Positions 6,001-9,000 of a stretch of DNA of 64,000 nt are shown piece by piece. Numbering within the stretch: the stretch's first letter is position 1; every line of letters starts with the position of its first letter. Location of the stretch: IMG/VR virus record IMGVR_UViG_2531839666_000014; one strand, given 5' to 3'. The DNA is from a virus. Taxonomy: Duplodnaviria > Heunggongvirae > Uroviricota > Caudoviricetes. A program made the position numbers.

Positions 6001-9000
6001 AAAATTAATGATTAAAATCACAAGAATGCAATACGCATCAAAAACTTACCCTAAATAACACCAGTATTACTCAGAAAAAACAAAACATTTTCTGTGGTTA
6101 TTATTTACCATTGATAAATATTACCTCTCTCTGTCAGCCTGCATTGTATAAAACATACACTACAAACGGGTGCCATATCGGCTGAACCTCAGCAACCAGT
6201 TGACGGGGACTTTCGTCCCCGTCGCGGTTTTCCTACTGCTTACACTGTAAGAACGCCGCAAACTCCGCTCCCCACAAATTCAGCCGGAACTCACACAGCG
6301 AACCGTGCAACATCCAGATAGTGAAGATAACCGTCATACAAATTGTGACGGTGATAAGCGATTTTTGCGACATAGCGCTTGACTCCTTTTACAGAGAGGC
6401 GCTAACCTTCTACTTGCTTAAGGTATGATGATTAGGGCCTCGGGTTAACGTTAAGTTGACTCGGGGCCTTTCCACATCAGGCCTTCAGGTTCTCCCTCCA
6501 GCCATCAGCCGAAAGGCACCCACGCATAATTTACGGTTTTTGCCCTGTACGGGCAATAAAAAACCCGCCATCACAGCGGGTAGTAAACGGTTACCGGATA
6601 CAGGTCAGAATTTCAGGCCAATGCCAGCAGTAACGCCACTCGTGCGCCAGTCGCCAGAGCCGGAACCTTCGTAAGCCACATCCAGTGTAACACTCTCATT
6701 CAGGTTAAACTGTGCACCTGCAGCCCACGCAAGGGAGGTTTTTTTCGTGCTGTTGCTTTCAGAAAATCCGCCACTACTGTTAATATTGTCCTTAATTTTC
6801 AGGTCAGCGCTAACTTTAGCAACGCCCATCCCTGCCATCGCATATAAACTCATGTACTGATTAACCCGCCATGAAGGCCCCGCTAACAGACTCCAGTAAT
6901 TCGCCCTGATATCCGTTCTGGCAGAAGCTGCCGGATTCTTAATCTTCCTGGTATGATCGGCTGACTGCACATCAATAAATGTCTGTGAGTTAGTGAGAGA
7001 ACGCGTCCATGTAAAAGAGGTGATAACGCCAAAATCATCCGTTATCTCGTAGCGATACCTGATATTAATGCCCTGTGGATTTTTATCCTTGCCTTCATAT
7101 CCACTGACCCGACCATCTGTATATTCGCCCAATGAAGAAAAGTAGTTTCTGTTGACGAAATGACTGAAAGTCTCCCTGTTATGAGCAGTCGCATCCTTTA
7201 CAAAATCCTTCAGTCCCGGAAACTGAAAGTGCGCATACCCCAGAGAAATTGTATGGTTTCCTTCTGCTGCATGTGCAGATAAATTTACACAGGCAATCCC
7301 GGAGATTGCACACACAACCAGTGTTGCTATACTCTTCATTTAAGATATCCTGTATTCAGATAACACGCTAAACTTTTTAATAATACATCTTTTTAGACAT
7401 TTTAAATGAATATTAAAGACTCGCTTCAACTAATCATATACTGATGTATTAATAACCAGGACCTTATCTATATACGGCTTTCGAATATCCCATGTTGCAC
7501 CACCGGAATAATGCTCACAGGAATATATTTTATTTCCTGTAGCACCAGTGGATGTGGTATAAATCGGTCGATCATAAGGAGTTCTTTTCCAGTTATAATA
7601 CCCGACCAGTGCAGGCATGATTGCGCATGGATATCCAAGGTCCTTTTCAAATTTGATATCAACAGGTATTAACTTCGCGTCAAGCAGCATCATTTCGCCA
7701 TGATAAATCATCTCACCGTCCGGGTTATACATGGCGATACCATACTCAGAAGGTGGAGTAACCATATTCGCGAAAGCATAAACCGTCGTAACACCAGGGT
7801 TCGTTCCCCTGACAATTACATGAAGCCTTAGAGCATGATATCCATCAATCTGTTCATGCGTGTACATGACATCGGCCTTCTTCTCTGTTCTGATAAAGAA
7901 AAAACAACTTTTGCCTGACGGGATTGATGTTTTAAAAAAAGACTTTTCAGTCGCCGGTATGGTGCCTTTGTTGATCAGACACTGCGGCGTAAAACCTGGA
8001 CTTATCCATACGCTGCCATCCGGCTTCATAATGCTCAAACCATACATGACACTTATCCCCAGAATGTATAAATATAAGATCCCATACCCTGCTCAAGATT
8101 CGACCACGTCACCGTATTGCCATTAATGGTTATCTTCGGTACTTTCCGATCCGCAAATACATTATTCCAGGGAAATAAACAACATACTGCCTGCAATGAT
8201 TTCCCGTCGGGTTTATTCGTGTACGTCTTTGAGCCAGACTCCGCTGTAAATCTGTCCAGGAAAAATACCGGAGTCAGCACGCCCGTAACATTAACGTTAT
8301 TTCTGTTATAAATGGCAAAACCGTATTCCAATACTCACCTCCTGATCAGCGTAATCTGCCTATGCGAACAGCCAGTCGTCCATTCTGATCATAAACCTCA
8401 ATTTTATCATTGCGGATCACCAGTCCTACATTCTGATTAGAGTAACGAATTGTCAGTTGCCCTTGTGACGTAACACTGAAAAGGCCTCCAATATTCAGGT
8501 TACCCTGAGAATCAACCTGAAAGTTTCCGTTCTGAATAACGGCACTCCGGATAACTGGCGAAGTGATACTTACCCCGGCTTTTACCTCATCCGCCACAAC
8601 CTTCCGCGACACCAGTGTTTCAATCACCGCGTCATAAATCATCGCTTTCGGGATCACAACCTTGCCACCTGATACCGCAAACGGATAGGCGGTGTTATCC
8701 GGGTTGTTCGGGTCAAAGACAAACAACTGCGACGCAGAAATTGCAACCTGACTTACAGGCCTGCCTTCACTGTCTTTTCCGGCGACAATCCCGATCCCCG
8801 CAGTGATACCATCAACTCCCGCTTTTTTTGACCACATTGCCAGAAACGCCTCACCGCCTTCTTTATCCAGTTTAGTGATGCGCTTGTCGACCTCATTAAG
8901 CGATTCACTGGTTGACGAATCCAGTGTGCTAATGCGGGTTTCAATACCACCAATCGTTCTTGTCGTTTCTTCCCTGAGAGTCCCCACAACTTCGGTTGTC

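Follow-up and report, generated by a model that had tools for sequence, protein, structure and literature searches.

Between the lom gene and a YadA-like autotransporter gene of a 64,000-nucleotide viral sequence (IMG/VR record IMGVR_UViG_2531839666_000014, Caudoviricetes; this whole stretch is called the window below) lies a gap of 723 bp (5882..6604) that holds an open reading frame (ORF) of 46 amino acids. This raises the question of whether the ORF belongs to a complete toxin-antitoxin locus of the hok/sok type and, if so, which RNA acts as its antisense partner and what takes the place of the mok frame that overlaps hok on plasmid R1. The answer proposed here is that the gap carries a complete hok/sok-type type I toxin-antitoxin module, carried as cargo by a Shiga toxin (Stx)-converting lambdoid prophage at the distal end of its late operon. 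We give this reading a probability of about 0.8. The system type and the toxin gene are already known from RefSeq, PHROGs and a recent catalogue of Hok proteins. What is added here is the complete RNA anatomy of the module, the finding that mok is missing although the peptide is under selection, and the link to Sok of the precursor of 24B_1, an RNA published as a phage 'microRNA'. The features are collected in Table 1, where positions on the minus strand run from the higher to the lower number.

A preliminary description of this DNA, made from the sequence alone, had noted in the gap a 46-amino-acid ORF with one transmembrane helix and a Hok-type tail. The ORF is confirmed at 6373..6233 on the minus strand. 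Its product, MSQKSLITVTICMTVIFTIWMLHGSLCEFRLNLWGAEFAAFLQCKQ, has a single hydrophobic stretch, with SLCE at residues 25-28, an arginine at position 30 and AAF at 39-41. It is a member of the Hok family. The match to the Pfam profile HOK_GEF (PF01848) covers residues 8-44 and scores 33.2 bits, above the gathering score of 22 (E-value 4e-8), and the profile of PHROG 251 ('MokW-like host killing') gives 85.8 bits; 'MokW-like', there and in some phage records, is a family label and not an identity. By inspection, the positions M1, C16, T18, L30, C31, E32 and E41 of the family logo (R1 numbering) correspond to M1, C12, T14, L26, C27, E28 and E37 of the present peptide, and all of these residues except M1 appear as identities in the BLASTP alignment with R1 Hok. 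No solved structure is related to the peptide by sequence. The preliminary description had called the locus unannotated, which does not hold: RefSeq has an entry for exactly this ORF (WP_000078907.1, 'Hok/Gef family protein'), PHROGs includes it in a family, and some sources label the same protein 'protein HokA'. In older phage records it is listed as hypothetical or omitted, and the coding sequence is indeed missing from the annotation of the phi24B GenBank record (HM208303).

The module is widespread. The exact peptide occurs on at least 1000 contigs. A region of 461 bp matches 1673 of 5426 complete E. coli genomes (about 31%), nearly always in the chromosome and at up to 8 places per genome. 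The same region matches 198 phage records, mostly of Stx-converting phages including 933W, VT2-Sakai and phi24B, and essentially all 933W/Sakai-type Stx phages carry the module. Across this region the window is 100% identical to phage phiSTEC1589-Stx1c. A search of GTDB genomes and IMG/VR, with a three-sequence alignment as query, returned 86 related loci. They reduce to 57 unique relatives with 63-100% nucleotide identity to the window, and these form the sample for the comparisons below. The hok ORF is intact in all 57, which come from several genera. The ratio of non-synonymous to synonymous substitution rates (dN/dS) ranges from 0 to 0.36 across the relatives and from 0.20 to 0.36 against the Salmonella-type copies, while within the Stx-phage type 0 non-synonymous differences stand against 3-6 synonymous ones. 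Judged from these substitution patterns, the peptide is clearly under purifying selection. For its toxicity we rely on the literature: the Hok survey of Escalera-Maurer et al. (bioRxiv 10.1101/2025.08.07.668861) lists the identical peptide as 72_1589 in the high-abundance cluster 72 (Table S2) and cloned it as LRP157 for a toxicity assay in which 42 of 45 Hok constructs were toxic, the three non-toxic ones being other sequences.

Some of the related loci lie in unusual records. Those from Xanthomonas pisi (L004), a Planococcaceae metagenome-assembled genome (L005) and Vagococcus sp. (L007) show an enterobacterial hok module, with 76-100% peptide identity, on short or odd contigs, and assembly contamination is likely. 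Several IMG/VR contigs (L053, L058, L061, L073, L078, L081 and L082) end exactly 3 nt past the hok stop codon, probably reflecting assembly or prophage-boundary breaks at a multi-copy module.

The relatives also delimit the predicted transcript. Conservation begins at GGGTGCC (6521) and ends at GGCACCC (6168), and the sequence outside these limits is diverged or replaced. The conserved module is thus about 355 nt long, and its terminal heptamers are exact complements. The long 5' leader announced in the preliminary description measures 148 nt (6521..6374), its 5' limit being set by the start of conservation among the relatives. The predicted full-length RNA (6521..6160) folds with -152.9 kcal/mol (z = -7.2 against shuffles) and is closed by a helix between its 5' and 3' ends. 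In the consensus structure, computed with RNAalifold from 47 unique sequences, 98.8% of cells are paired versus at most 43% in slid controls, a difference inflated by the derivation of the structure from the same sequences. Compensatory cells number 59, versus 23 +/- 4 in shuffles, and none of 500 shuffles matched this value. The closing helix has the two-part arrangement of the tac/fbi pairing. Both the minimum free energy (MFE) structure and the consensus join 6521..6515 with 6174..6168, and a second helix joins 6512..6505 with 6185..6178. In the alignment produced by the tool the second helix exhibits one change on both sides together with wobble changes (G-C to G-U), and manual realignment of the relatives L009 and L010 reveals compensatory G-C to A-U changes. 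One IMG/VR relative of the Stx-phage type (L027) has the promoter, tac and the first 40 nt or so of the leader (~6480-6560) swapped for unrelated sequence, with the rest intact; this natural 5'-truncated variant should lack the tac/fbi lock.

The stable hairpin that had been noticed 3' of the stop codon is real (6223..6202) and is the best-supported helix of the molecule. Pair 323/332 is AU in 27 sequences and GC in 20, and pair 324/331 is AU in 20, CG in 19 and GC in 6. The hairpin begins 9 nt past the TAG stop, its foot lies about 27-28 nt upstream of fbi, and it is flanked by a helix between AACCG (6229..6225) and UGGUU (6198..6194). A consensus scan flags a terminator-like 10-bp stem followed by CGGTTTTCCT on the plus strand, and the hairpin might on this ground be taken for an element independent of hok, a terminator or insulator that separates lom from the cargo gene downstream. 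However, no plus-strand gene ends there, and on the minus strand, along which all the neighbouring genes run, the hairpin is not followed by a U-run. Moreover, the hairpin lies within the tac-to-fbi module and covaries in unrelated contexts such as P2-like prophages. A terminator function is therefore extremely unlikely. In R1, mutations in the last stem-loop of the truncated hok mRNA lead to degradation by RNase and abolish toxicity (PMC9841398). By analogy, the present hairpin is likely to mark and protect the 3' end of the processed hok mRNA.

An Rfam search, which the preliminary description had proposed, gave a mixed outcome. The family RF01794 ('sok') is matched over its full length (model positions 1-157) at 6521..6360, with 36.4 bits and an E-value of 2e-6. 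However, this score is below the gathering score of 59, and the match lies on the hok-sense strand. Since it does so and the model consensus ends in AUG, the model represents the hok leader. Both promoters of the module were deduced from conservation and from the published promoter p24B_1 (see below). For hok, TTG and TAnnnT stand at a constant distance in the relatives amid diverged sequence.

An antisense RNA had been expected at 6380-6520. A candidate is predicted on the plus strand. The -10 box of its promoter sits in an invariant block of the family alignment, and the predicted RNA (-29.3 kcal/mol, z = -5.2) is complementary to nt 50-106 of the hok mRNA. All 29 unique relatives compared retain its hairpin (93% paired versus at most 68% when slid). 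Four of its pairs are G-U, where the hok-sense strand would have C-A mismatches. Since such pairs are valid only on the plus strand, the perfect helix exists only in Sok. Covariation in this hairpin alone is weak, with 2 compensatory cells and a score not above shuffles, because the stem is nearly invariant; the case for the hairpin is built on conservation and on this strand asymmetry. The 5' tail behaves differently. Among the otherwise near-invariant copies of the Stx-phage type, the patch 6420-6431 has a column entropy of 0.94 bit, while other blocks of 12 columns have at most 0.26 bit, except 6419..6408 (0.36) and 6395..6384 (0.49). It is the 5' tail of R1 Sok that initiates pairing. The simplest reading of the patch, from sequence variation, would be diversification against cross-talk between the up to 8 co-resident copies.

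The antisense RNA has in fact been detected in phi24B, under another name. Small-RNA sequencing of induced phi24B lysogens gave 2223 identical reads of '24B_1', located between lom and vb_24B_43, and a promoter p24B_1 with the boxes TTGACT and CGCTAACCT was predicted together with a hairpin precursor of about 80 nt (Nejman-Falenczyk et al., Sci Rep 2015, PMC4426718). The 20-mer matches the window once, at 6446-6465 on the plus strand; chance alone would give 0 matches. The p24B_1 boxes coincide with the Sok promoter deduced here (TTGACT at 6379-6384, CGCTAACCT at 6400-6408), and the published precursor model reaches to about 6496. The region of phi24B (HM208303) is 98.9% identical to the window and its 20-mer is identical. 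On this sequence evidence the published 24B_1 precursor appears to be the Sok antitoxin of the hok locus. Hfq binds the 81-nt precursor with a Kd of 25 nM (PMC10732415). The word 'hok' occurs 0 times in the 2015 paper (PMC4426718), in the 2023 follow-up (PMC10732415) and in a 2025 review on 24B_1. A 2017 review from the same group treats Hok/Sok and 24B_1 separately, and no further paper in the literature searched contains both hok and 24B_1.

According to the published interpretation, the relevant product of the region is the 20-nt 24B_1 RNA itself, a trans-acting regulator resembling a microRNA. The abundance of identical 20-mer reads after induction speaks for it, as do changes in lysogenisation, induction timing and burst size upon deletion and complementation of 24B_1. 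In addition, weak in vitro binding of an sdhB mRNA fragment by the mature 20-mer has been reported, ATP is lower in cells that carry the locus, and the 2023 follow-up explained an ATP drop, together with effects favouring lysogeny, by an action of 24B_1 on sdhB (PMC10732415). However, less than 10% of the sdhB fragment is bound at 100 nM, and a perfect target in cis, the hok mRNA, was left out of consideration in the 24B_1 papers. The constructs are also ambiguous. Mapping of the primers places the 189-nt deletion of 24B_1 at about 6385-6572 of the window, where it removes the hok promoter, the entire leader, half of the hok Shine-Dalgarno (SD) sequence and Sok. The insert of the complementing and 'overproducer' plasmid pUC18_24B1 (phi24B 45473-46037, equal to 74-638 of locus L092) contains the complete hok/sok module with both promoters and the identical, intact 46-amino-acid ORF. 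Since deletion and plasmid both include hok, the genetics of 24B_1 do not separate an effect of the microRNA from one of the toxin-antitoxin system. A fall in ATP is a classic consequence of Hok-type membrane damage, and by this parallel the ATP drop in the 24B_1 work would be expected from leaky Hok. Finally, purifying selection on the peptide argues that the hok ORF is no bystander. We therefore consider it unlikely that the 20-nt RNA is the relevant product.

The plasmid insert corresponds to about 6120-6687 of the window, its downstream end being non-homologous. A later paper calls it 'the 189-nt region', yet the primers span 565 bp. The toxicity of pUC18_24B_1 in the presence of isopropyl beta-D-thiogalactopyranoside was considered as a sign of Hok induction and was not used: given the pUC18 polylinker order, Plac would drive the antisense strand.

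The component that the module lacks is mok. The preliminary description had expected an overlapping mok frame, but in the window none of the three frames extends further than 15-44 nt upstream of the hok ATG: counted from this ATG, they open at -15, -44 and -28, and the open stretches contain no ATG, GTG or TTG. In the 57 relatives, searched in three frames, a long overlapping frame is open in a minority only and in inconsistent register. As far as these sequences indicate, such a frame is not a conserved feature of this Hok cluster. What is nearly invariant is an initiation-like site, GAAGG-N4-AUGUGG (6486..6473), at the edge of the Sok target. The leader ORFs are short in the window (8 amino acids from the ATG, with a stop at 6453..6451; 21 from the GTG, with a stop at 6412..6410). 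In the relatives those that begin at the conserved start range from 1 to 79 codons and end between -100 and +137, in a register that varies by subgroup.

Hok synthesis in R1 requires that mok be translated as far as the hok SD, and premature mok stops upstream of hok abolish toxicity (PMC9841398). Together with the closed frames and the variable leader ORFs, this would suit a decaying, translationally dead hok relic in which Hok is never made for want of mok, its conservation reflecting the recent spread of Stx phages. However, the conservation described above extends over 63-100% identity and several genera. Distant pairs retain a dN/dS of 0.2-0.36, close pairs differ at synonymous sites only, and compensatory changes maintain the RNA helices. 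In addition, the published toxicity assay included the exact peptide, and the three constructs that proved non-toxic carry other sequences. A dead relic is thus highly improbable. The absence of a mok frame, combined with purifying selection on the peptide, implies that Hok must be translated by a route other than that of R1.

The predicted folds suggest where such a route may lie. The hok SD faces an upstream anti-SD, CCUCU, in a local hairpin. In the thermodynamic model the probability that the SD is unpaired is 0.01 in the full-length RNA, 0.29 after 3' truncation and 0.01 in the truncated RNA with the Sok target masked; the corresponding family medians are 0.00, 0.07 and 0.00. When fbi is removed, the 5' end re-pairs in the fold with GGAAAGGCCCC (6473..6463). 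These models would allow Sok to act through release of the anti-SD CCUCU (6399..6395). Another possibility is a short leader ORF whose translation stops at the conserved UAG (6412..6410), shortly before the anti-SD.

A working model of the module can be drawn from these elements. The weak minus-strand promoter (~6556..6528) would yield a hok mRNA of about 355 nt or longer. Its 5' GGGUGCC would pair with the 3' GGCACCC, giving a stable, untranslatable RNA in which the hok ribosome-binding site is buried. Slow trimming from the 3' end would be expected to stop at the GC-rich hairpin after the stop codon. With the loss of fbi, the 5' end would re-pair with GGAAAGGCCCC, opening the Sok target and partly freeing the ribosome-binding site. 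From the plus-strand boxes TTGACT/TAACCT a short antisense RNA, composed of a 5' tail and a 16-bp hairpin, would be made; this would be the equivalent of Sok and the '24B_1 precursor'. It would pair with nt 50-106 of the hok mRNA, keep the ribosome-binding site closed and probably lead to cleavage by RNase III. If the supply of Sok falls, the 46-amino-acid Hok would be made and damage the inner membrane. As there is no mok, control would probably be exerted through RNA structure directly, or through the short leader ORF that ends at the conserved UAG before the anti-SD. As the late genes share the strand of hok, antiterminated late transcription should pass the lom terminator, enter hok as sense RNA and run into polymerases transcribing Sok. 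This would fit the appearance of Sok-derived fragments only after induction and would parallel hokW-sokW. The locus may play a role in the phage life cycle.

Several observations, besides the missing mok frame, weigh against a complete hok/sok module. In many relatives, truncation is predicted to open the SD only slightly. The best NCBI model for the peptide, the NCBIfam equivalog HokA (NF007290), gives 38.4 bits, short of its cut-off of 89. RF01794 does not attain its gathering score, and at the gathering threshold Rfam yields no match in the hok region when the whole window is searched. A scan for the sigma-70 consensus brings neither the hok nor the Sok promoter to threshold. The Sok hairpin is trailed by UUUCC only, a weak terminator, and the authors of the 24B_1 work found no intrinsic terminator (PMC4426718). 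Nor does the window copy have an intrinsic terminator after fbi, where the Salmonella-type relatives have a clear one about 20 nt downstream. The main discordant observation is that in phi24B lysogens the 20-mer and a reverse transcription PCR product of about 80 nt were obtained only after induction and not at time 0 (PMC4426718). Absence before induction misfits a constitutive antitoxin, although the strand specificity and sensitivity of that assay are uncertain. Set against membership in the Hok family, selection on the peptide, tac/fbi complementarity, a covarying hairpin and a conserved Sok promoter, these points leave the preliminary description right in kind, the locus being a type I locus of the hok/sok type. 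Neither of the contrary outcomes that this description had named has come about: a Hok-family profile does match, and an antisense RNA with this sequence was detected in phi24B.

A broader proposal joins these results, and we put it forward as tentative, if plausible. It holds that 24B_1 is a fragment of Sok, most likely a product of RNase III or of hairpin processing that appears when late read-through supplies hok-sense RNA. The lower ATP, increased lysogeny, slower induction and smaller burst would stem wholly or partly from Hok and its deregulation. The locus would represent a mok-free Hok subfamily in which binding of Sok releases the anti-SD that closes the hok ribosome-binding site, and the patch 6420-6431 would prevent cross-talk. 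Two separate literatures are thereby brought together: the Hok catalogue, where Sok and mok are undefined for this cluster, and the papers on the 'phage microRNA', whose trans-acting model overlooks that the RNA lies antisense to a toxin gene. If the proposal is true, an RNA promoted for a decade as the first functional bacterial or phage 'microRNA' is a Sok fragment. The module is present in nearly a third of complete E. coli genomes and in nearly all Stx phages of the 933W/Sakai type, so that whatever influence it may have on lysis or on the timing of induction is relevant to the release of Shiga toxin. A hok family that naturally lacks mok and is under selection would also be a counter-example to the R1 rule that mok must be translated.

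Table 1. Elements of the hok/sok-type module and adjacent genes in the window
Feature	Position	Strand	Basis
hok promoter (predicted): -35 TTGCCC 6556..6551, 17-nt spacer, -10 TAAATT 6533..6528; start at about 6521	6556..6528	-	read directly, conservation
hok mRNA core (predicted, full length), from the tac 5' end to fbi	6521..6168	-	conservation limits, fold, covariation
tac-like 5' element: GGGUGCC 6521..6515 and UCGGCUGA 6512..6505	6521..6505	-	MFE structure and alignment consensus
mok-like initiation site: GAAGG 6486..6482, AUG 6477..6475, GUG 6475..6473; ucb-like GGAAAGGCCCC 6473..6463	6486..6463	-	near-invariant motif
hok SD GGAG 6386..6383 with upstream anti-SD CCUCU 6399..6395, local hairpin	6399..6383	-	MFE structures
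hok coding sequence, 46 amino acids and TAG stop (6235..6233)	6373..6233	-	ORF list, Pfam PF01848, PHROG 251, RefSeq
Stop-proximal 9-bp GC-rich hairpin, GACGGGGAC-GAAA-GUCCCCGUC	6223..6202	-	read directly; covariation
fbi-like 3' element: GGCACCC 6174..6168 and UCAGCCGA 6185..6178	6185..6168	-	exact complement of the 5' end; last conserved bases
Sok promoter: -35 TTGACT 6379-6384, 18-nt spacer, -10 TAACCT 6403-6408	6379..6408	+	read directly; equals the p24B_1 boxes
Sok-type antitoxin RNA (predicted): single-stranded 5' tail of about 18 nt, 16-bp hairpin 6434-6470, UUUCC tail	6416..6472	+	fold, conservation
Hypervariable patch in the Sok 5' tail / hok target region	6420..6431		column entropy
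24B_1 20-mer TAACGTTAAGTTGACTCGGG, loop and 3' arm of the Sok hairpin	6446-6465	+	exact single match in the window
lom intrinsic terminator, abutting the hok promoter	6581..6563	-	terminator scan: 8-bp stem, then TTTTTATT
lom (Ail/Lom) gene	6605-7339	-	Pfam Ail_Lom, 113 bits
YadA-like trimeric autotransporter gene	4670-5881	-	YadA anchor and head domain matches

The hok locus stands at the far end of the Stx-phage late operon and is co-directional with the late genes: terminase, portal, capsid, tail fibres, lom, hok and the YadA-like gene all lie on the minus strand. The YadA-like gene (4670-5881), together with the stretch at about 5882-6164, takes the place of the vb_24B_43-type gene that follows hok in phi24B and 933W, and homology to these phages ends directly after the fbi element (GGCACCCGTTT). 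This break right after fbi indicates that the hok module ends at a mosaic recombination junction. In Salmonella, distant relatives (63-76% identity) occupy the distal end of P2-like prophages, where they follow gpD and an Ogr-like gene; others are located at prophage/chromosome junctions. The hok module is a typical cargo of prophage ends. Examples are L006 and L059 (Salmonella and related), L008 (E. albertii) and L010 (S. diarizonae), where it follows gpD and the Ogr-like zinc-finger gene of P2-like prophages or lies beside serS or pheT/ihfA. A second RefSeq Hok/Gef gene, frameshifted and partial, is present outside the window in L091, a strain identical to the window over the query region (6700-6773 of L091, at a prophage/chromosome junction near ymdF). 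Elsewhere in the prophage, Rfam matches at gathering level comprise a tandem STnc100 pair on the minus strand (28979-29192 and 29254-29465, 198 and 139 bits) and, also on the minus strand, sRNA-Xcc1, C4 antisense RNA and isrK (33917-34007, 34849-34932 and 34958-35031).

Among known systems, hok/mok/sok of R1 is the closest model. The two share the C..T, LCE and E positions of the Hok peptide, the tac/fbi complementarity of a long leader, a hairpin just past the stop codon, and, beside the hok start, an antisense promoter for an RNA built of a 5' tail followed by a hairpin; the alignment to the Rfam leader model spans its full length. However, peptide identity is 30%, with 46 amino acids here versus 52 in R1. 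The present locus has no overlapping mok and no intrinsic terminator after fbi, and it occupies the end of a phage late operon rather than a plasmid. HokA of E. coli K-12 provides the best NCBIfam match and shares the C-terminal motif AAFL(A/Q)CK, but it belongs to another 60% cluster (93 versus 72) and the equivalog cut-off is far from reached.

A second hok/sok-type module carried by Stx phages is hokW-sokW of Sakai prophage 5 and 933W, where Sok is lost and Hok is produced after prophage induction and aids lysis (Takada et al. 2021, PMC8621323). The present locus is distinct from hokW-sokW. HokW has 51 amino acids, begins with MKQQKAM, is HokD-like (35_712) and is 37% identical to the present peptide over 35 amino acids. 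The possibility that the window locus is the published hokW was rejected on account of the different peptide; moreover, the hokW leader primer has no match in the window at up to 3 mismatches.

The survey that defined Hok cluster 72 contains the identical peptide, but was limited by design to coding sequences; it did not settle Sok, mok or the mRNA structure and drew no connection to 24B_1. Conversely, 24B_1 of phi24B was published as a microRNA-like RNA acting in trans, with the antisense hok neither annotated in HM208303 nor mentioned in the papers. It has nearly the same DNA as the present locus, the same 20-mer and the same promoter boxes, and its precursor hairpin is the Sok hairpin.

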